Shown: piece after piece, positions 8,557-57,128 of the stretch
Numbering within the stretch: the first letter of the stretch is position 1
Layout of the letters: the number at the start of each line of letters is the position of its first letter
Virus record (IMG/VR): IMGVR_UViG_3300022561_001209
DNA from: a virus
Taxonomy: Duplodnaviria; Heunggongvirae; Uroviricota; Caudoviricetes
Strand: one strand, 5' to 3'
Length of the DNA: 64,000 nt
The notes under the pieces: generated by a model
What the model was told of the DNA's origin: nothing
The model's input: only the letters and a program-made list of their open reading frames with translations
Databases searched by the model: none
Made by a program: the position numbers and the translations under genes

Positions 8557-8585
8557 ATTATACCAAATTTTAAAACTTTTGTCAA
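8557..8585 (-). promoter_or_regulatory. consensus sigma-A type promoter (TTGACA-17-TATAAT with TG extension) plus A-tract UP element to about 8625
   Basis: minus-strand reading AAGTCTTGACAAAAGTTTTAAAATTTGGTATAATGAATTA. The -35 is at 8580-8585 and the -10 at 8557-8562. One of at least 10 near-identical copies in the window. Confidence 0.7.
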
Positions 8586-11751: not shown

Positions 11752-11831
11752 TGAGAATGGCAGGAATTGAACCTACGTCAACTTCAACCCTATTGGAAGG
11801 TGAGTGCTCTACCAACTTGAGCTACATCCTC
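11752..11831 (-). tRNA. tRNA-like gene with canonical acceptor, D and T arms but a non-canonical anticodon arm (possible pseudo-tRNA; loop CTTCCAA/TTCCAAT)
   Basis: minus strand reads GAGGATG-TA-GCTCAAGTTGGTAGAGC-A-...-GTAGGTTCAATTCCTGC-CATTCTC-A. The 7-bp acceptor stem has one G-U pair. The anticodon stem pairs poorly and about 11 nt lie between the anticodon and T arms. Confidence 0.45.
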
Positions 11832-11988: not shown

Positions 11989-12056
11989 ATTGTATGACTT
12001 CACTTATTTGTCAATTTAATTTTAATATACACTAAAAAGTATGACTCAATATAAAT
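11989..12056 (+). repeat. two copies of the TTGTA(C/T)TGAATTGTATGACTT iteron-like motif
   Basis: caatTTGTACTGAATTGTATGACTtcac and actaaaaaGTATGACTcaat; same motif as the 8-copy array at 14895-15614. Confidence 0.6.
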
Positions 12057-12061
12057 TTTAA

Positions 12062-12089
12062 ATAAAGAGACTTTTCAGTCTCTTTATTT
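12062..12089 (-). terminator. intrinsic terminator-like hairpin directly after the stop of ORF 12090-12449 (bidirectional A-run/T-run context)
   Basis: AAAGAGACT-TTTC-AGTCTCTTT; perfect 9-bp stem flanked by AATAAA and ATTTTT. Confidence 0.5.
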
Positions 12090-13865: not shown

Positions 13866-13950
13866 TGAAAGGTATAGGATTTGAACCTATGTAACTGTTA
13901 CATTAAACGGTTTACCAAACCGCCTCCTTAATCCTCTCGGACAACCTTCC
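13866..13950 (-). tRNA. class II tRNA (long variable arm, tRNA-Ser-like body) with apparent anticodon GGU
   Basis: GGAAGGT-TG-TCCGAGAGGATTAAGGAG-GCGGT-TTGGTAA-ACCGT-[16-nt variable arm TTAATGTAACAGTTAC]-ATAGG-TTCAAAT-CCTAT-ACCTTTC-A. CCA is not encoded. The D-arm and overall architecture resemble bacterial tRNA-Ser(GGA). Confidence 0.6.
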
Positions 13951-13993: not shown

Positions 13994-14446
13994 TTATCTT
14001 AGTATTTCTGCTACTATACTATTTACCAACTTACCATCAGCTTTTCCTTTTACTTTTGGCATTAATTCTTTCATTAGTCTACCTTTTTCTTTTCCTGATA
14101 TACTCTCTATTCCTAGTTCTAATATTGTTTCTTTTACTATAACTTCAATTTCTTCTCTTGTTAGTTGCTCTGGCAAATAATCTGTTAAAACTCCTATTTT
14201 TTTCTCTGTTTCTTCTGCTAAATCTGCTCTATTACCCTTTTTAAAGGCCTCTAATGAATCATTTTGCTGCTTGATTTCTTTTGCTATTATATCATATATA
14301 TCTTCATTTGTTAACTGTTCCTCAGTAATTTTTCTGTCCTTTGCTACATTTGCTATATTAGCTCTCACTATCTGTATAATATCTTTCTTGATTTTTGCTT
14401 TGTCTTTCATTGCTTGTTTATAATCATTTTGTAATATGTGTATCAT
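13994..14446 (-). CDS. yqeY: GatB/YqeY-domain protein
   Basis: 150-aa protein co-linear with B. subtilis YqeY: ...EAFKKGNRADLAEETEKKIGVLTDYLPEQLTREEIEVIV...MKELMPKVKGKADGKLVNSIV. Confidence 0.85.
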   Translation of the reverse strand: MIHILQNDYKQAMKDKAKIKKDIIQIVRANIANVAKDRKITEEQLTNEDIYDIIAKEIKQQNDSLEAFKKGNRADLAEETEKKIGVLTDYLPEQLTREEIEVIVKETILELGIESISGKEKGRLMKELMPKVKGKADGKLVNSIVAEILR

Positions 14447-14486: not shown

Positions 14487-14570
14487 TGGTGAATAGTGTT
14501 GGATTTTAACCAACGAACCCGAAGGAACTGATTTACAGTCAGTTTGCTTTAACCCTTTGCTTACCTATTC
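14487..14570 (-). tRNA. tRNA-Tyr (anticodon GUA), class II, CCA encoded
   Basis: GAATAGG-TA-...-ACTGA-CTGTAAA-TCAGT-[TCCTTCGGGTTC variable arm]-GTTGG-TTAAAAT-CCAAC-ACTATTC-A-CCA. Perfect anticodon stem; the D-arm is less canonical. Confidence 0.6.
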
Positions 14571-14807: not shown

Positions 14808-14836
14808 ATTATATCATATCAAAAACTATTTGTCAA
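14808..14836 (-). promoter_or_regulatory. consensus sigma-A promoter (TTGACA-17-TATAAT) upstream of the tRNA-Tyr / yqeY region
   Basis: minus strand reads TTGACAAATAGTTTTTGATATGATATAAT; -35 at 14831-14836, -10 at 14808-14813; A-tract UP element beyond. Confidence 0.65.
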
Positions 14837-16387: not shown

Positions 16388-17638
16388 TTAGGGATTACAT
16401 TTCCCACAAGGGTCATATCCTTGTGATGTTGCTTCGTCCCTTGTTTCAAAGTATATTCTATTTTTTGGGTCAGGCAATGAACTACAAGAATCTAAATGAA
16501 ACTTATGTGAATTTTTATTTCCTATATAAGTTGTCTCACTATTATTGTTTGTATTTACAACTTCCTTTGTAGGTAAAACACTTTCTTTAATTATTACAAC
16601 TTCTTCTTTAGTAATATTTTCTTGTTTTACTGTGCTCTTATTCTCTATAGCATTAACATTAAAAGTAATATCTCTTCCATCTCCTGTAGCTATTATTGTA
16701 CCTTGTGAATCTGTCCTAAATACTTCTATATTTCTAGATTCAAGTCTATCTAATATTTCATTCGATGGATGTCCGTATTTATTATCTTTCCCTACTGATA
16801 TAACAGCATACTCTGGATTAACTTTATTTAAGAAATTTTCTGATGTTGATGTATCACTTCCATGATGCCCTAGTTTTAATACATCTGCTGATACATCTAT
16901 ATCATTTCCTAAAATCTCATGCTCAGGTAAAAACTCATTGTCTCCCATAAATACAAATTTATTATCTCCGTAAACTATCTTTAATGCTACAGAATAATTA
17001 TTTAAATCCTTATATTCTGAATCGTTAGGCGACAATATTGTACATTCTGCCTCACCTAATTTAAATGTATTTCCAACTTTAGGCGAAGTTACTTTTAATC
17101 CCTTATTACTAATTGCATTAATTACATCCTCATATGTCTCAGTAGTACTCAATGTTTTTGGCATTATTATATTTTCTACTTTTATATTATTTATTACATC
17201 ATCTAATCCGCCTATATGGTCTTCGTGAGGATGTGTTCCTATTACATATTCTAAATCTTCTATACCTAGATTATTTATATAATTAACTACTAAATCACCA
17301 TCACCATTGTTTCCTGCATCTATCAGTAATTCGTTATCACCTTGTTTTACTAATATCGAATCTGCTTGGCCTACATCTATAAAGTGTACTTCTATATTTC
17401 CTTTTATCTTACTTACTTCTTCTACTGTAGTTTCTTCTACTGTAGTTTCTGCTACAACCATATTTTCTTCTTCTACATGTATAACTTCTTTATTTACATT
17501 AGGCTGTTCTTTTGATTCAGAACAACCTACTGATATTATCATTACTATTAATAGTAATACACTTATTAATTTATACTGCCTTTTCGACTTTAGTTTCATT
17601 GCATACCTCCGGACTTGCCAATAATTTATTGTCTTCAT
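16388..17638 (-). CDS. secreted metallo-beta-lactamase-fold hydrolase (ComEC C-terminal-like) with C-terminal Ada-type zinc-binding domain
   Basis: signal/TM (LISVLLLIVMIISVGC). MBL motifs HFIDVGQADS, HPHEDHIGG and LKLGHHGSDTS. The C-terminus (KFHLDSCSSLP...GYDPCGKCNP) matches the Ada_Zn_binding pattern. The start is probably an internal Met, since the ORF overlaps the ftsH stop. Confidence 0.75.
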   Translation of the reverse strand: MKTINYWQVRRYAMKLKSKRQYKLISVLLLIVMIISVGCSESKEQPNVNKEVIHVEEENMVVAETTVEETTVEEVSKIKGNIEVHFIDVGQADSILVKQGDNELLIDAGNNGDGDLVVNYINNLGIEDLEYVIGTHPHEDHIGGLDDVINNIKVENIIMPKTLSTTETYEDVINAISNKGLKVTSPKVGNTFKLGEAECTILSPNDSEYKDLNNYSVALKIVYGDNKFVFMGDNEFLPEHEILGNDIDVSADVLKLGHHGSDTSTSENFLNKVNPEYAVISVGKDNKYGHPSNEILDRLESRNIEVFRTDSQGTIIATGDGRDITFNVNAIENKSTVKQENITKEEVVIIKESVLPTKEVVNTNNNSETTYIGNKNSHKFHLDSCSSLPDPKNRIYFETRDEATSQGYDPCGKCNP

Positions 17639-19385
17639 AAATTATTCTGTCAAGGTCATCTCCAGTTAATGTTTCTTTTTCAAGAAGTTCTTTTGCTATT
17701 ATTTTAAGTTTATCTATATTCTTAGTCATTAACTCCAGTGTTTCATTATACAATTTATTTGACAACTCCACAGCTTCGTCAATATAAGTTTCTTTCTTTA
17801 CATCTGCAATTATCAGCATCCCATACTTTTTACTCATCCCATAAATATTAAATAAGTTATCTATATCTTGAGTAGCTTTCTTTATATCTTGAGATGCACC
17901 AGTAGTTATAAGGTCTTCGTCTCCTCTTAATAAGAATTCTCCAACTCTTCCTGCATAACTTACTTTTATGTCGTTCATTATATCTCTCTTCGTAAATAAT
18001 CCCATTTTTTTAGGAATATTAAACGTTACACCGCCTGCACCACTTGTTGATGGTATTATAGTTACCTTATGAACGTCATTTTCTGTAAGTAATTTAGCCG
18101 TCAATGCGTGAGCTGCTTCATGGTAAGCTACTAACTCAAGGTCATCTTTATTTACTTCTTTTCTATTTTTCTTCTTATCTCCTTGCATTAACATTCTGAA
18201 ATAAGCATCGTCAATTTCTTCTTTACCTACTATTTTCTTATCTCTATTAACTGTTAATATTGTAGCTTCGTTTAGCAATGTTTCAATGTCTGCCCCACTA
18301 AATCCTATTGTTATTTTAGCTAACTCTTCTAAAGATATCTCAGAAGATAATCTCTTATTCTTAACGTAAATATCTATTAACTCTTTTCTATCTTCTAAAT
18401 CAGGTAATCCTATAGCAATCTTTCTATCAAATCTTCCAGACCTTGTTAACGCTGGGTCTAAACTATCTAATCTATTTGTAGCTGCTATTACTATTATCCC
18501 TGTATTATTTTTGAAACCATCCATAGCATCAAGTAATGCGTTTATTGTTTGGTCTTTTTCTGAGTTGTTACTTGTACCCCTTATACTTCCGATAGCATCT
18601 ATTTCATCTATAAATACTATACAAGGTGCGTTCTTCTTAGCTTTTTCGAATAATGTTCTTACTCTTCTTGCTCCCACACCTACGTACATTTCTATAAAGT
18701 CTGAACCACTTGCACTAAAGAATGGTACTCCTGCTTCTCCTGCTATTGCCTTAGCTGTAAGTGTTTTTCCAGTTCCTGGAGGTCCATAAAACAAAATCCC
18801 CTTAGTTATTCTTGCTCCCATATCACCATATTTCTTAGGTTGTTTTAAGAATTTTACTAGAAATTCAACATCTTCTTTTGACTCTCTGTTTCCTGCTATG
18901 TCTTTAAATTTTATGTCAGGAATATCTGTCTTATTTTCCTTCTGCTCTGTAATAGCTGCTGAAGGTGTTATTTTCTTAAAAAGTACCGAAAATAATATCA
19001 GCATTATTGCTAATTGTCCTACCATCAATATTATACTTAAGAATGATGATTGTACATTATCTGTTACTTCTTCTACCGATGCATTATTATCCAGTAAATA
19101 TTTTTTAAATCCCTCTACTCTAGGATTATCTGTATAAAATGTATTTCCATCTTTATCTAAATATGTGAATGTACTGCTACTGAAATTTATATATACTCTG
19201 TCTATTTTATTAGATTCAAGTTGTTTCGTAAATTCAGCATATTGTACTCTATCCGTATTATTTATACTTGTGCTGTTATTTTTCCCCGAGCCATCTGCTA
19301 CATATGCTAAAAACATAATTATTATTATTATTATAACATATGTAACTTCTTTACTAGGTTTAAATTTATCCCAACTACTTTTCAA
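17571..19385 (-). CDS. ftsH: FtsH-family membrane-anchored ATP-dependent zinc metalloprotease
   Basis: two TM helices flank an extracytoplasmic domain. Walker A GPPGTGKT, Walker B IVFIDEIDA, SRH TNRLDSLDPALTRSGRFDR, HEAAH zinc site. Confidence 0.9.
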   Translation of the reverse strand: MKSSWDKFKPSKEVTYVIIIIIIMFLAYVADGSGKNNSTSINNTDRVQYAEFTKQLESNKIDRVYINFSSSTFTYLDKDGNTFYTDNPRVEGFKKYLLDNNASVEEVTDNVQSSFLSIILMVGQLAIMLILFSVLFKKITPSAAITEQKENKTDIPDIKFKDIAGNRESKEDVEFLVKFLKQPKKYGDMGARITKGILFYGPPGTGKTLTAKAIAGEAGVPFFSASGSDFIEMYVGVGARRVRTLFEKAKKNAPCIVFIDEIDAIGSIRGTSNNSEKDQTINALLDAMDGFKNNTGIIVIAATNRLDSLDPALTRSGRFDRKIAIGLPDLEDRKELIDIYVKNKRLSSEISLEELAKITIGFSGADIETLLNEATILTVNRDKKIVGKEEIDDAYFRMLMQGDKKKNRKEVNKDDLELVAYHEAAHALTAKLLTENDVHKVTIIPSTSGAGGVTFNIPKKMGLFTKRDIMNDIKVSYAGRVGEFLLRGDEDLITTGASQDIKKATQDIDNLFNIYGMSKKYGMLIIADVKKETYIDEAVELSNKLYNETLELMTKNIDKLKIIAKELLEKETLTGDDLDRIIYEDNKLLASPEVCNETKVEKAV

Positions 19386-35310: not shown

Positions 35311-35339
35311 TATATTATATCAAATTTAATAACTTTTGT
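35311..35339 (-). promoter_or_regulatory. consensus sigma-A promoter TTGACA-17-TATAAT (TG-extended) with UP element
   Basis: minus strand reads GTATTGACAAAAGTTATTAAATTTGATATAATA; -35 at 35334-35339, -10 at 35311-35316. Confidence 0.7.
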
Positions 35340-35520
35340 CAATACTTTTTTTAATAATTTTAAAAATAATTTTTATTAAATTAAAATTATATGTTTACAC
35401 ATATAATTTTAATTTTTGGTTGTGTTTTAATATAATATTGATATTAAAAAGTATATAATTATTTAAGATTATCTACTTTTCTATCTTTTTTTATTATCTA
35501 TTTAATACTAATTTGTATTA

Positions 35521-39034: not shown

Positions 39035-39063
39035 ATTATAAACTAAATTTTAACTTTTGTCAA
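39035..39063 (-). promoter_or_regulatory. consensus sigma-A promoter TTGACA-17-TATAAT with UP element
   Basis: minus strand reads GTCTTGACAAAAGTTAAAATTTAGTTTATAAT; -35 at 39058-39063, -10 at 39035-39040. Confidence 0.7.
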
Positions 39064-40498: not shown

Positions 40499-41299
40499 TT
40501 ATTTTATCTCTAATATTTCTTTAAATATTTCATAGTTTCCTTTTTTTCCAGGTCTATCATAAACTGCAAATACTACTTTTTTAAATAAATGTAACATGTC
40601 CTCTTCTATAAGAAGTTCCAACCAATTATTTGCTACATCTTTAGTATTATTTCCAAATACACCACATCCGAATGCACCTAATACTACTGTTTTACAACCC
40701 TCACTAGTCATTAACTTTAGTATTTTTCTCATTCTGTTTTTCATTGCTCTTTTAGCTTCTTCTTCATTTTCCTGGTGTTTTAATACTTGTTCCATGTTTA
40801 CAGCTGCTGATGTTACTACTGTGACTGTCTTAGGTTTTTCTACTAGCTTAAAACTTCCTGTTCTAAAAAATCCCACATCTCCAATAATCATATTGTCTGT
40901 GTACATTTTACTCTTTACTTTATTATTAATTTCGTAAAACTCATTTCCCTCAAGTGTGTCATACAAATTGCTACAATAAGCTAAACATTCTTCTTGTGCC
41001 ATTGCACCGTTTTGAAATCCCCCACCAGGATTGTGTGCTGATGCAAAGTTTAGTACACCTATATTATCTTCTTTCAATCTAAATATAGTGTCTACTGTAC
41101 TTTCATTTACTATCTCTATTTCTGTGTTCACAAACTTACTTTGCCTGCTCACATCTAGTTTTTCTAAATAATCATTTCCGTAAAAATCTCCTATTTCTAT
41201 GTAGTTTAATTTAACTGTTTTACCATTTACTTTGTATTGTCCTGCTCCTACTATATCTAAAGTTTCTTTAGCTAAGTCCTTTAGCCTATTTCTATCCAT
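40499..41299 (-). CDS. bacterial-type poly(ADP-ribose) glycohydrolase-like macrodomain protein (DUF2263/TIGR02452 family)
   Basis: exact PARG signature GGG-x7-QEE (NFASAHNPGGGFQNGAMAQEECL) plus diphosphate-binding loop GAFGCGVFGN. Confidence 0.7.
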   Translation of the reverse strand: MDRNRLKDLAKETLDIVGAGQYKVNGKTVKLNYIEIGDFYGNDYLEKLDVSRQSKFVNTEIEIVNESTVDTIFRLKEDNIGVLNFASAHNPGGGFQNGAMAQEECLAYCSNLYDTLEGNEFYEINNKVKSKMYTDNMIIGDVGFFRTGSFKLVEKPKTVTVVTSAAVNMEQVLKHQENEEEAKRAMKNRMRKILKLMTSEGCKTVVLGAFGCGVFGNNTKDVANNWLELLIEEDMLHLFKKVVFAVYDRPGKKGNYEIFKEILEIK

Positions 41300-45698: not shown

Positions 45699-46724
45699 CT
45701 ACATCAACCCTTTAATTATCTTACCGTTAATATCCATAATGAGTTCTTCTATCTTCTTAGAGTCAGGCTCTTTAGGTAAAAATGTGTTTTTAGCTGCGTA
45801 CTTAAATCTTTTCTTGTATTCTTCTACTAATTCAAAGAAACTCTCGTCATAGCTTTCATCATCTTTTCTATATCCACCTGTTCTTATTTTCCGTAAAATA
45901 TCTAGTTCATTCTCTCTATATGTCACTATTTTACCTCTTTCTAATATGTCTAAACCCATAATGTATAGTCTAATTAAGTGCTGGGCATGTTTATCTAAAT
46001 GGTTATCATCTTTCTTTTTGTTTCTGTGATTTACTTTGTCGTAAAGTCTAATTACATTCTGCATTTCACCTAACATTCCTGCTAACTCTCTTAAAGAATA
46101 TTCTTTTAAATCGATTGTAACTTTAATTTCTTTGTCCATATCCTCTTTATCACTATCACCTAAATCTAATATTACTTTATTTTCATCAAACTCTGTGTAT
46201 CTACTTTCAAATGTCATCATAGCGTTTCTAATAGAGTTTAATATATGTTCTTCTTTCTTTACCTGCCCTAGTCTATCTCTTGCTAAGGCATTTTCCAACC
46301 TACTTAGTTGTTGGCTTGCATAACCGGAGAAACTTCCAATAGCTTTCTGAGATAGAAATATATCTCTGTTATCTAATAGTTGTTGTCCTTCTTTTGAAAC
46401 TATTAAATAATGTTCAGGTTTACATCCAAGTATCTCAATTACGTTAGGATTACAGTTCATTAGTAACTTAATCATCTTATTGAATGCATAAATAGTAGTG
46501 TCTGTGTTTGTCTCTACTATTTGCTCAAATTCTGTTAGCCCTATTAAATCTGAAGGTCTCTCTAATGCTACCCCTCGAACATCTATATCGCTTTGTCCGT
46601 CTTCTCTTTGAGTTCCGTATGCATGACTTCCGCCTAATGATAGTAACATTATTCTATCTTTTAAGTGTTCATCTTCCCTTAAGAAATCATATTCTTTAGC
46701 TTCTATTACTTTTTTAAAGTCCAT
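45699..46724 (-). CDS. polymerase-beta superfamily nucleotidyltransferase
   Basis: minimal NTase motif LSLGGSHAYGTQREDGQSDIDVRGV (GS...D-x-D) near the N-terminus with a helical C-terminal domain; resembles the predicted-nucleotidyltransferase family common in phage genomes. Confidence 0.55.
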   Translation of the reverse strand: MDFKKVIEAKEYDFLREDEHLKDRIMLLSLGGSHAYGTQREDGQSDIDVRGVALERPSDLIGLTEFEQIVETNTDTTIYAFNKMIKLLMNCNPNVIEILGCKPEHYLIVSKEGQQLLDNRDIFLSQKAIGSFSGYASQQLSRLENALARDRLGQVKKEEHILNSIRNAMMTFESRYTEFDENKVILDLGDSDKEDMDKEIKVTIDLKEYSLRELAGMLGEMQNVIRLYDKVNHRNKKKDDNHLDKHAQHLIRLYIMGLDILERGKIVTYRENELDILRKIRTGGYRKDDESYDESFFELVEEYKKRFKYAAKNTFLPKEPDSKKIEELIMDINGKIIKGLM

Positions 46725-47651: not shown

Positions 47652-47700
47652 GACTCCGACCCCTTAATTTATAAAATTTCTATTAAATATATTATAAACT

Positions 47701-47729
47701 ATTTTAACCATTTTGTCAATACTTATTTT
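47701..47729 (-). promoter_or_regulatory. consensus sigma-A promoter TTGACA-17-TATAAT with UP element
   Basis: minus strand reads GTATTGACAAAATGGTTAAAATAGTTTATAAT; -35 at 47724-47729, -10 at 47701-47706. Confidence 0.7.
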
Positions 47730-49514: not shown

Positions 49515-49543
49515 ATTATAAACTATATTTATCGATTTGTCAA
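49515..49543 (-). promoter_or_regulatory. consensus sigma-A promoter TTGACA-17-TATAAT
   Basis: minus strand reads GTACTTGACAAATCGATAAATATAGTTTATAAT; -35 at 49538-49543, -10 at 49515-49520. Confidence 0.7.
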
Positions 49544-51322: not shown

Positions 51323-51351
51323 TATTATAACATAACTCATAGTTTTTGTCA
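51323..51351 (-). promoter_or_regulatory. consensus sigma-A promoter TTGACA-17-TATAAT
   Basis: minus strand reads GTTATTGACAAAAACTATGAGTTATGTTATAATAT; -35 at 51346-51351, -10 at 51323-51328. Confidence 0.7.
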
Positions 51352-51738
51352 ATAACCTTTTCTAATAATTTTTAAAATAACCTTATATCAAATTTTATAA
51401 CCTCTAAAATCAATTTAAACACACGTTTATATTAAACTAATATAAACTTACATAATACATATATTTCAATCTAAATTAACCTTTTTATCTCCCTACAATC
51501 AATATTAAATATACTTTTCTTTACTTAAACTTCTAAAAATTAAACATAAAATAACCACCATCTGTAGTGGTTATTTGCTAATTCTAAAGTATTGTTTTTC
51601 CCCATTTATACACTTCAGTCTTTGTCTTCAAATCCCTGTACATACTCATTATCTCATAAAACCTCTAGTAATTTAACTGCCTTTATTTCTGTATTGCAAC
51701 TAACAGTGCATTCTCTTATTTCTTTAAGTCAAATTCTA

Positions 51739-57099: not shown

Positions 57100-57128
57100 A
57101 TTATACCATAACACTAAAAAAATGTCAA
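57100..57128 (-). promoter_or_regulatory. consensus sigma-A promoter TTGACA-17-TATAAT (TGG-extended) with UP element
   Basis: minus strand reads GTATTGACATTTTTTTAGTGTTATGGTATAATAGA; -35 at 57123-57128, -10 at 57100-57105. Confidence 0.7.

Follow-up and report, generated by a model that had tools for sequence, protein, structure and literature searches.

The 64,000-nucleotide stretch of tailed phage DNA analysed here (Caudoviricetes; IMG/VR record IMGVR_UViG_3300022561_001209), referred to throughout as the window, encodes at positions 13866-13950 a transfer RNA (tRNA) that combines a serine-type body with the threonine anticodon GGU. Comparison with related phages shows, at the level of sequence, that this GGU tRNA descends from a tRNA-Ser(GCU) carried beside the gene yqeY in the phage lineage, the middle base of the anticodon having changed from C35 to G, and that it has been kept as a proper cloverleaf since its split from those orthologues. 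It would be an alloacceptor anticodon shift, from Ser to Thr, that is seen at an early and incomplete stage. The explanation that we prefer, although we hold it tentatively, is that it is an intact and probably expressed anticodon-shift tRNA of hybrid identity, which would insert mostly Thr at ACU and ACC codons and would not act as a recoding device.

The gene and the parts of it that bear on this argument are as follows.

13866-13950, minus strand: class II-shaped tRNA of 85 nucleotides (nt), anticodon GGU, no CCA encoded, sequence GGAAGGUUGUCCGAGAGGAUUAAGGAGGCGGUUUGGUAAACCGUUUAAUGUAACAGUUACAUAGGUUCAAAUCCUAUACCUUUCA (ARAGORN and Rfam).

13914-13916, minus strand: anticodon G34-G35-U36, which is acc on the plus strand (ARAGORN, Rfam and alignment column 36).

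13891-13906, minus strand: variable arm U[UAAU]GUAACA[GUUA]C, of Ser-type geometry, with a 4-bp stem and one unpaired base on each side.

13866, minus strand: discriminator base A73, which is G73 in the three closest orthologues.

13868, minus strand: U71, in a G.U wobble with G2; the orthologues have G2:C71.

ARAGORN, run on the window, called the tRNA at these coordinates on the minus strand and placed the anticodon ggt at position 35, while the Rfam model RF00005 covered the gene end to end (model positions 1-71 of 71) with 50.9 bits and E = 5.6e-08, against a gathering score of 29. The anticodon stem GCGGU/ACCGU closes around the loop UUGGUAA and no non-standard pair was flagged in the tRNA by cmscan (Rfam). 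The variable region of 16 nt gives the molecule its class II shape, and every pair is formed in the 7-bp acceptor stem and the 5-bp T stem, the canonical 7/5 arrangement. The initial annotation, which had read a TTGGTAA loop with anticodon GGU in a long-variable-arm fold, was therefore correct on both counts, and the covariance model returned GGU and neither GGA nor UGA. Further assemblies were located by the identical sequence of the neighbouring YqeY protein (at least 10 contigs), and the 85-nt tRNA with 1-8.4 kilobases (kb) of flanking DNA proved 100% identical in 10 contigs that had been assembled independently from JGI, ENA and Logan samples. GGT is thus not a read or assembly error, which rules out a sequencing artefact as the source of the anticodon. 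No single-nucleotide polymorphism was found among the 10 assemblies in the tRNA or its flank, indicating that the sampled population is clonal.

The ancestry of the GGU tRNA was traced in relatives reached through YqeY homologues at 53-79% identity, those with a Ser(GCU) gene beside yqeY standing at 61-79%. The related phage contigs carry arrays of 10-30 tRNA genes surrounding yqeY, with CCA encoded in all, and three of them (L133, L134 and L135) have an 88-nt tRNA-Ser(GCU) directly upstream of yqeY. The GGU tRNA aligns with these three orthologues over all 85 positions without a gap, and shares with them the D-arm, the anticodon arm GGUUUG-N-UAAACC and the variable loop GUAACA. The sole difference in the anticodon is C35 in the orthologues (loop UUGCUAA) versus G35 in the window tRNA, and it is for this reason that the ancestor was Ser(GCU) and not Ser(GGA). 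With C35 changed to G, the tRNA has lost pairing with the Ser codons AGU and AGC and gained pairing with the Thr codons ACU and ACC.

Profile scores that take no account of the anticodon agree with this descent. Anticodon-masked profile hidden Markov models built from 174 phage tRNAs, which classified 164 of the 174 (94%) correctly when held out, scored the body of the GGU tRNA at 47.0 bits as Ser, 20.9 as Tyr, 10.9 as Leu and 7.0 as Thr; within Ser, the Ser-GCU type scored 50.4 bits versus 36.0 for the Ser-UCN type. When it was compared with about 300 distinct class II tRNAs, nearly all of those closest to it were Ser(GCU). A Ser-type body had been recognised from the outset, and the masked profiles uphold it. 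The accompanying claim of a close resemblance to bacterial tRNA-Ser(GGA) was not borne out, since the resemblance is to tRNA-Ser(GCU) and the change lies at position 35 rather than 36; a Ser(GGA) ancestor with a change of A36 to U is ruled out by the orthologue alignment together with the masked profiles.

A search among deposited phages for close DNA relatives of the region gave nothing useful, the best tRNA match being the tRNA-Ser of Bacillus phage Deep Blue (Blue_244), at 72% identity by BLAST; identity to the metagenomic Ser(GCU) orthologues is 67-73%. These tRNA-Ser(GCU) genes of Herelleviridae-like phages (L133, L134, L135 and Deep Blue) have the same 85-nt layout and the same 7/5 acceptor and T stems as the GGU tRNA, and that of Deep Blue also has A73. 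Unlike the Ser(GCU) orthologues, the GGU tRNA has G35, and so reads ACY rather than AGY codons, together with G2.U71, A73 in place of the G73 of the three closest orthologues, no encoded CCA and an AU-rich variable stem.

The suggestion that the gene might be a decaying tRNA-Ser copy does not fit its structure. None of its 24 stem pairs is broken. Across the six-member family, 97.9% of cells are paired in the Ser-type cloverleaf and 15 of the 24 pairs have changed on both sides, with far lower values in shuffled and slid controls. At 22 columns the GGU tRNA stands apart from all three Ser(GCU) orthologues. Fourteen of these columns belong to seven pairs that were swapped with full compensation, namely 4:69, 5:68, 28:42, 50:64 and three in the variable stem, where both sides changed as GGGU/GCCC in the orthologues became UAAU/GUUA. 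At two more, a change on one side alone keeps a pair or creates one (column 25, U.U to U:A; column 71, G:C to G.U), and the remaining six are unpaired (16, 20, 22, 35, 57 and 73). The Rfam score of 50.9 bits is on a par with those of the orthologues (52.3, 48.5 and 48.5) and of the Deep Blue tRNA (49.4). As an encoded CCA is absent from about 40% of the phage tRNA genes sampled, its absence here is not diagnostic. The marks of a tRNA pseudogene, namely broken stems, lost conserved nucleotides and a score lowered relative to orthologues, are missing from the GGU tRNA and are displayed by a neighbouring tRNA-like gene at 11752-11831, described below.

The identity of the GGU tRNA was assessed against the bacterial Ser and Thr determinant sets of Giegé & Eriani (2023; PMC9976931), according to which seryl-tRNA synthetase (SerRS) does not read the anticodon and position 73 is not a strong Thr determinant. 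Of the seven Ser determinants listed there for bacteria, the GGU tRNA keeps five (C72, A4:U69 as R4-Y69, C11:G24, the large variable region and G30:C40), while G73 is now A73 and G2-C71 is now G2.U71. The orthologous Ser(GCU) tRNAs have both G73 and G2:C71, so that two among the few uncompensated changes in the GGU tRNA hit Ser determinants at the acceptor end. For comparison, 107 phage tRNA-Ser have G2:C71 in 94% of cases (another 2:71 pair in 6%), A73 in 5% and U73 in 22%. The determinants of threonyl-tRNA synthetase (ThrRS) that are present comprise G1:C72, G5:C68, G34, G35 and U36; those absent are C2-G71 and G4-C69. Among class I phage Thr tRNAs, 69 of 74 have C2:G71, as do all 73 distinct tRNAs compared from a long-arm Thr(UGU) family discussed below. 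As a bacterial tRNA-Ser, then, the molecule has the long arm, the Ser body and C72, R4-Y69, C11-G24 and G30-C40, and lacks G73, G2-C71 and a Ser anticodon; as a canonical tRNA-Thr it has G35/U36 and G1-C72, and lacks C2-G71, the short variable loop and a Thr-like body. Judged by these determinants its identity is hybrid, a Ser body with a Thr anticodon. The simple Ser identity first assigned to it holds for the body and fails for the whole, the strong ThrRS determinants G35/U36 and the discriminator A73 having been overlooked. The argument made at the same time, that SerRS recognises the variable arm and not the anticodon and that Ser could hence be inserted at ACY codons, is a legitimate possibility (PMC9976931 on the anticodon).

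Whether the phage itself reads ACU as Ser was examined in its protein genes. Over 94 open reading frames (ORFs), the Thr codons comprise 613 ACA, 257 ACT (14.4 per 1000), 51 ACG and 11 ACC; the commonest Ser codon is AGT, with 392 occurrences (22.0 per 1000). The test for recoding was the residue that homologues carry where the phage has ACT, compared with ACA. In the FtsH-like protease, aligned with 118 homologues, ACT falls on five near-invariant Thr columns (two of them Thr without exception across the 118) and never on a conserved Ser column; ACA falls on nine conserved Thr columns. In a 684-amino-acid and a 128-amino-acid protein compared with about 80 relatives, and with a conserved column taken as one at least 80% conserved, ACT lies on three Thr and no Ser columns and ACA on eight Thr and no Ser columns; the 80 loci gathered with the 684-amino-acid protein have just two genes in common with the window. 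Pooled over conserved columns, ACT is on Thr eight times and on Ser not once. Opposite an 80%-identical FtsH (L469), ACT faces Thr at 28 of 36 sites (78%) and Ser at two (6%), and ACA faces Thr at 60 of 84 and Ser at five of 84. ACT supplies about 30% of the codons at conserved Thr columns versus a 28% share of Thr codons overall. The Clostridioides phage pCD1602_4, with three ORFs in common with the window and no tRNAs, was useless for this purpose.

Because ACU is neither shunned at critical Thr sites nor found at Ser sites, these alignments show the phage protein genes to be written in the standard code, with ACU as Thr. A designed reassignment of Thr codons to Ser is refuted by the occurrence of ACT on conserved Thr columns and never on conserved Ser columns. 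The initial annotation had spoken of a recoding or mistranslating tRNA: the recoding half of that proposal falls, with ACU at invariant Thr sites and no excess of Ser, and the other half, mistranslation at a low level, is left standing and is not refuted.

Expression of the GGU tRNA is suggested by the following features upstream of it, given in the order in which they would be transcribed.

14808-14836, minus strand: sigma-70/sigma-A type promoter TTGACA-17-TATAAT, a perfect consensus, with TG before the -10 box.

14487-14570, minus strand: tRNA-Tyr(GUA), class II, CCA encoded, first gene of the promoter unit (ARAGORN; Rfam 40.3 bits).

13994-14446, minus strand: YqeY (GatB/YqeY-domain protein) of 150 amino acids, between the two tRNA genes (Pfam PF09424, 131 bits).

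8557-8585, 14808-14836, 35314-35342, 39035-39063, 47691-47719, 49515-49543, 51324-51352 and 57100-57128, minus strand: perfect promoters of the window, most of which begin TTGACAAA.

The promoter at 14808-14836 lies about 240 nt upstream of tRNA-Tyr and heads the unit tRNA-Tyr > yqeY > tRNA(GGU). As no terminator-like site was seen between this promoter and the GGU tRNA, and the promoter is perfect, the unit is probably transcribed. Eight perfect TTGACA-17-TATAAT promoters in the window, all on the gene strand, compare with 0.09 expected by chance, and are thus real phage promoters; they probably mark early transcription units read by the host's main sigma factor.

On the account that we prefer, the GGU tRNA would be processed in the infected cell and its CCA added by the host enzyme, and it would then decode ACU, which makes up 14.4 per 1000 codons of the phage, as well as ACC, which is rare. 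Two synthetases would compete to charge it. SerRS would still see the long variable arm, C11-G24, G30-C40, R4-Y69 and C72, with G73 and C71 gone; ThrRS would see G34, G35, U36, G1-C72 and G5-C68. The editing site of ThrRS normally hydrolyses Ser from tRNA-Thr, that is, from tRNAs with a Thr anticodon, and such editing would strip Ser from the GGU tRNA and favour Thr. The net result would be Thr, with at most low-level Ser, at ACY codons. When another synthetase has mischarged a tRNA-Thr, ThrRS can also edit it in trans (PMC9976931). Of six yeast constructs, the one that joined a tRNA-Ser body to the Thr anticodon AGU was alone in giving no measurable Ser misincorporation, which the authors attribute to competition from ThrRS through G35/U36 (PMC6125640).

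Several observations weigh against this account. The Drosophila tRNA-Ser(AGU) did give Thr-to-Ser substitution (PMC11631534), so that the experimental precedents for a Ser body with a Thr anticodon are in conflict between yeast and fly. The key ThrRS acceptor determinant C2-G71 is absent from the GGU tRNA. AGU, the former target, is in higher use (22.0 per 1000) than ACU, and no gain in codon supply is evident. With the ten assemblies clonal, persistence of G35 under selection is not indicated and the mutation could be very recent; the tRNA array of the lineage has moreover shrunk from 10-30 genes to three, one neighbour of the GGU tRNA being broken. Finally, pattern scans of viral, metagenome and genome collections found no second GGU member of the family. 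In viral contigs the exact D-arm pattern gave no matches, and the pattern TTGGTAAN{20,30}GGTTCRAATCC gave 120 loci without a single long-arm GGU tRNA, most being class I tRNAs with TTGGTAA in the D-loop. A 15-base pattern, TTGGTAA-N9-TGTAACAG, was too loose, its 240 matches in viral and metagenome contigs all being due to chance and lying outside tRNAs; a tighter 19-base family pattern had no viral matches and two genome matches, in unrelated metagenome-assembled genomes, neither of them in a tRNA.

A rival history is one in which a recent and unselected anticodon mutation struck the tRNA-Ser(GCU) of a lineage that is shedding its tRNAs, so that service to AGY codons was lost without any new selected role, and the gene, neutral or slightly harmful, is bound to be lost. 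We consider this unlikely, yet it is the strongest competitor. The relatives carry 10-30 tRNAs around yqeY, all with CCA, and this phage has three in 64 kb, one of which has a broken anticodon arm; the Tyr gene scores 40.3 bits in Rfam, where the Tyr tRNAs of the relatives reach 51-64. No other occurrence of the GGU allele turned up in the collections searched, and the population sampled is a single clone. An encoded CCA and G73 are gone, and demand for AGU is above that for ACU. Against it stand the flawless cloverleaf, the seven compensated swaps and the orthologue-level score, which indicate that the gene has historically been mostly under selection as a tRNA, and neither the missing CCA (as in about 40% of phage tRNAs) nor A73 (as in the Deep Blue Ser(GCU)) is a sign of decay. 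The structure weakens this explanation, though it does not date G35. If a recent neutral mutation is nonetheless the answer, the lesson is one for annotation, namely that a tRNA that is Thr by its anticodon is not necessarily a Thr tRNA.

It is less probable again that the GGU tRNA is a genuine mistranslator, charged by SerRS through its variable arm and placing Ser at ACU and ACC codons to give a statistical Thr/Ser proteome, whether adaptive or not. The indifference of SerRS to the anticodon (PMC9976931) makes this plausible in principle, as do the five of seven bacterial Ser determinants that are retained and the tolerance of phage tRNA-Ser for U73 (22%) and A73 (5%). Anticodon variants of tRNA-Ser are known to mistranslate in yeast, flies and human cells (for flies, PMC11631534). 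Yet ACU occupies invariant Thr sites and never conserved Ser sites, and the phage is thus neither adapted to Ser at ACY codons nor exploiting it. The Ser determinants G73 and G2-C71 have both been altered, ThrRS recognises G35/U36 and edits Ser, and the lone exception without misincorporation among the yeast constructs was the one with the Thr anticodon (PMC6125640).

A search of viral contigs for tRNAs of similar design brought to light a second group of phage tRNAs with a Thr anticodon on a long-arm body. Scanning for the loop UUUGUAA yielded at least 88 class II-shaped tRNAs with anticodon UGU, at least 73 of them distinct; for the loop UUGGUAA with a long arm there was none among the matches listed, and all 13 GGU tRNAs in those loci are class I. 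Representatives are as follows.

L559-L676; L037, 4406-4492; L055, 1732-1814; L113, 2391-2476: examples of long-arm Thr(UGU) in viral contigs, from the scan for the loop UUUGUAA.

T5_ev212 (locus L677), 12001-12087: long-arm T5 tRNA-Thr(UGU) of 87 nt, the sole tRNA-Thr in the tRNA region of this T5 isolate.

The bodies of these tRNAs are Ser-like, typically scoring 30-45 bits as Ser versus 10-30 as Thr (43.6 versus 23.8 in one example). At the acceptor end, all 73 have G1:C72 and C2:G71, and position 73 is U, A or C and in no case G; class I phage Thr tRNAs show the same pattern and phage Ser tRNAs the opposite one. The T5-like tRNA-Thr belongs to this family and is found at 90-100% identity in about 100 records of cultured Escherichia and Salmonella phages, where it is annotated as plain tRNA-Thr. 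T5 tRNA-Thr(UGU) relieves PARIS toxicity and restores growth (PMC12409363), and rescue from P2-OLD by phage Thr(UGU) genes is also on record (PMC12445682). It follows that in E. coli a tRNA can serve Thr codons in spite of a long variable arm. The long arm of the T5-type tRNA-Thr is not mentioned in either of these papers, nor are long-arm Thr tRNAs in a mycobacteriophage tRNA study or a review of non-canonical tRNAs. A Ser-like scaffold with Thr identity is an established and widespread phage solution for the UGU isoacceptor.

The T5-type Thr(UGU) and the GGU tRNA are alike in being phage-encoded and class II in shape, with a Thr anticodon, a Ser-like body and a base other than G at position 73. 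They differ in that the GGU tRNA has a Ser-type acceptor stem (GGAAGGU), no C2:G71 and the anticodon GGU, and is so far unique. Since it belongs to a different sequence lineage, and given its anticodon and its Ser-type acceptor stem, the GGU tRNA is an event separate from the T5-type family. Among the remaining mismatched or over-long tRNAs met with, the tRNA-Asn of the T5 isolate likewise exceeds the usual length, at 83 nt, and other viral contigs contain long-arm tRNAs for Lys(UUU) and Asn(GUU); with Thr, these are the isoacceptors cut by PARIS AriB.

A bolder reading, which we regard as rather improbable, would place the GGU tRNA at an early, intermediate point of a path followed by phages on more than one occasion, in which a Thr tRNA is rebuilt on a Ser scaffold and selected as a defence-proof Thr-accepting decoder, the acceptor end leaving Ser identity (G73 to A, C71 to U); the T5-type Thr(UGU) would be the completed form. 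The swap of scaffold, if true, would be selected for hiding the tRNA from host nucleases or toxins that recognise tRNA-Thr. That the GGU tRNA already plays such a defensive part, either as a Thr(GGU) decoder on a Ser scaffold unseen by nucleases and toxins that target tRNA-Thr or as a decoy that soaks up the enzyme, is very unlikely: tRNA-Thr(UGU) is cut by PARIS AriB and P2-OLD and phage Thr tRNAs rescue (PMC12409363, PMC12445682), a type VI secretion system toxin ADP-ribosylates tRNA-Thr(GGU) specifically (PMC13617354), the rescuing T5 tRNA-Thr(UGU) is itself long-armed with a Ser-like body, tRNA-Tyr, whose gene shares the transcription unit of the GGU tRNA, is also known to be targeted by defences (PMC13096335) and the window encodes anti-defence-like genes (the Apyc1-like hydrolase, PARG/Macro and RlaP listed below), but the case is wholly circumstantial, the nucleases known from phage defence attack the UGU isoacceptor, with GGU spared by OLD (PMC12445682), and ACA, at 66% of the phage's Thr codons, is unreadable by a GGU tRNA.

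The surroundings of the gene are those of a phage. All ORFs of the window are on the minus strand, the GC content is 24-32%, and the PHROG and Pfam matches are phage-like. The 684-amino-acid protein has 60-64% identity to proteins of Herelleviridae Bacillus phages (TsarBomba, BCP78 and Bcp1) and of one Clostridioides phage, and a low-GC Gram-positive host is suggested by an SLH-domain protein and by the Clostridia and Bacilli among the sources of FtsH and YqeY homologues. By its gene content the window is an accessory or early part of the phage genome. It encodes an FtsH-like protease, an Apyc1-like metallo-beta-lactamase (MBL) hydrolase, a Dam-type methylase, a PARG/Macro protein and an RlaP nucleotidyltransferase; no aminoacyl-tRNA synthetase or CCA-adding enzyme is encoded in it. 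The flanking 222-amino-acid protein had no relatives in viral contigs. Further features of note are the following.

11752-11831, minus strand: degenerate tRNA-like gene, called Gly UCC by ARAGORN, no CCA encoded (ARAGORN and cmscan).

16388-17638, minus strand: MBL hydrolase matching Apyc1 (anti-Pycsar), with an Ada zinc-binding tail; candidate counter-defence or accessory gene.

17571-19385, minus strand: full-length FtsH-like AAA/M41 protease, with homologues from 100 to about 50% identity, including bacterial FtsH; candidate counter-defence or unusual accessory gene.

40499-41299, minus strand: PARG plus Macro ADP-ribose hydrolase; candidate counter-defence or accessory gene.

45699-46724, in the window: RlaP 'RNA repair' nucleotidyltransferase.

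The gene at 11752-11831 has, as first described, good acceptor, D and T arms and a disrupted anticodon stem, in which cmscan flags 3+3 non-standard pairs. RNAfold gives its anticodon arm as an interrupted 9-bp stem with a 5-nt loop, and its sequence is the same in both long assemblies (L123 and L124). Its body is not Gly-like, the isotype being ambiguous and nearest to Pro, Thr and Asn, and it is either a degenerate tRNA or else a tRNA-like RNA. In the tRNA-Tyr at 14487-14570 only about two pairs of the D-stem are good, and the T-loop (UUAAAAU) has A56 in place of C56; several anti-phage nucleases are known to attack tRNA-Tyr. In this phage, as in every relative found (L133-L143), yqeY sits among tRNA genes.

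The arrays of the related phages have peculiarities of their own. Rfam tRNA matches of 116-131 nt correspond to inserts of about 45-55 nt (L133, 697-827; L135, 4731-4846 and 8145-8261), and ARAGORN reports 72-nt tRNAs with a two-base 'anticodon' (tc), implying a 6-nt loop (L135, 4908-4979; L138, 1797-1868). Directly downstream of these arrays lies a T4 Rnl1-type RNA ligase (PF09511; L134, 3692-5155; L135, 9187-10614; L138, 3955-5370), which suggests tRNA repair; no counterpart was seen near the window tRNAs. A further tRNA was met in 15 of 80 Herelleviridae-like, mostly gut, phage loci.

L412, 19487-19573; L414, 18222-18308; L432; and 12 further among L389-L468: long-arm tRNA with anticodon UUG (Gln), the body scoring as Leu (48-53 bits).

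In L432 the acceptor stem and variable arm of this tRNA differ and the anticodon arm is identical, which suggests selection. Leucyl-tRNA synthetase ignores the anticodon, and the tRNA(UUG) with a Leu-like body may be another mismatch of identity and anticodon.

The GGU tRNA can be viewed as a rare natural case caught between two amino-acid identities, in a phage whose genes show no changed code. If it is expressed and charged, it amounts to a natural experiment that sets a Ser body against a Thr anticodon, and a SerRS blind to the anticodon against a ThrRS that reads it and edits. It would then reveal whether, in nature, a class II tRNA can cross into the codon family of a class I tRNA by a shift of a single base, and to what extent the editing by ThrRS buffers that crossing. 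Taken with the finding on T5 tRNA-Thr(UGU), it raises the possibility that Ser-to-Thr remolding is a recurrent source of phage tRNAs, an idea that bears on the debate over why phages carry tRNAs. Events of the same general kind are on record, and Saks reportedly described in 1998 an anticodon shift from Arg(UCU) to Thr(UGU) in E. coli.

Three groups of known tRNAs invite comparison on account of a class II body with a foreign anticodon. The allo-tRNAs (Mukai et al., 2017; PMC5389517) are likewise of bacterial or phage origin, with Ser identity elements, a long arm and foreign anticodons, and some insert Ser at non-Ser codons in E. coli (PMC5389517). They have 8/4 or 9/3 acceptor and T stems and a tRNA-Sec-like (selenocysteine) descent, in contrast to the canonical 7/5 of the GGU tRNA, whose membership of that group is rejected on its 7-bp acceptor and 5-bp T stems. 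The anticodon variants of tRNA-Ser (yeast tS-T(AGU), PMC6125640; fly tRNA-Ser(AGU), PMC11631534; human tRNA-Ser-AGA G35A, PMC12993449) share the class II body and foreign anticodon and are eukaryotic, as are the nematode nev-tRNAs, which have such a body and anticodon yet Leu identity (PMC3333845). The searchable literature yielded no phage tRNA-Ser of the canonical 7/5 bacterial type that carries a Thr anticodon; the type of event is already known, both as alloacceptor shift or remolding and as Ser-identity tRNAs with foreign anticodons.

A further parallel is with the alloacceptor shifts and remolding described in nuclear (PMC3923123) and mitochondrial (PMC4783518) genomes, in which a single anticodon substitution likewise moves a tRNA to another codon family. 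Thr is a favourable destination for such a shift since ThrRS reads the anticodon (PMC3923123), and one of 30 eukaryotic alloacceptor shifts involved Ser/Sec (Rogers & Griffiths-Jones, 2014; PMC3923123). The present shift was detected through synteny with orthologues. The reported cases are eukaryotic, nuclear or mitochondrial, or come from laboratory E. coli, whereas this one is in a phage, and its donor is a class II tRNA whose own synthetase is blind to the anticodon, so that the old identity is not erased by the shift.

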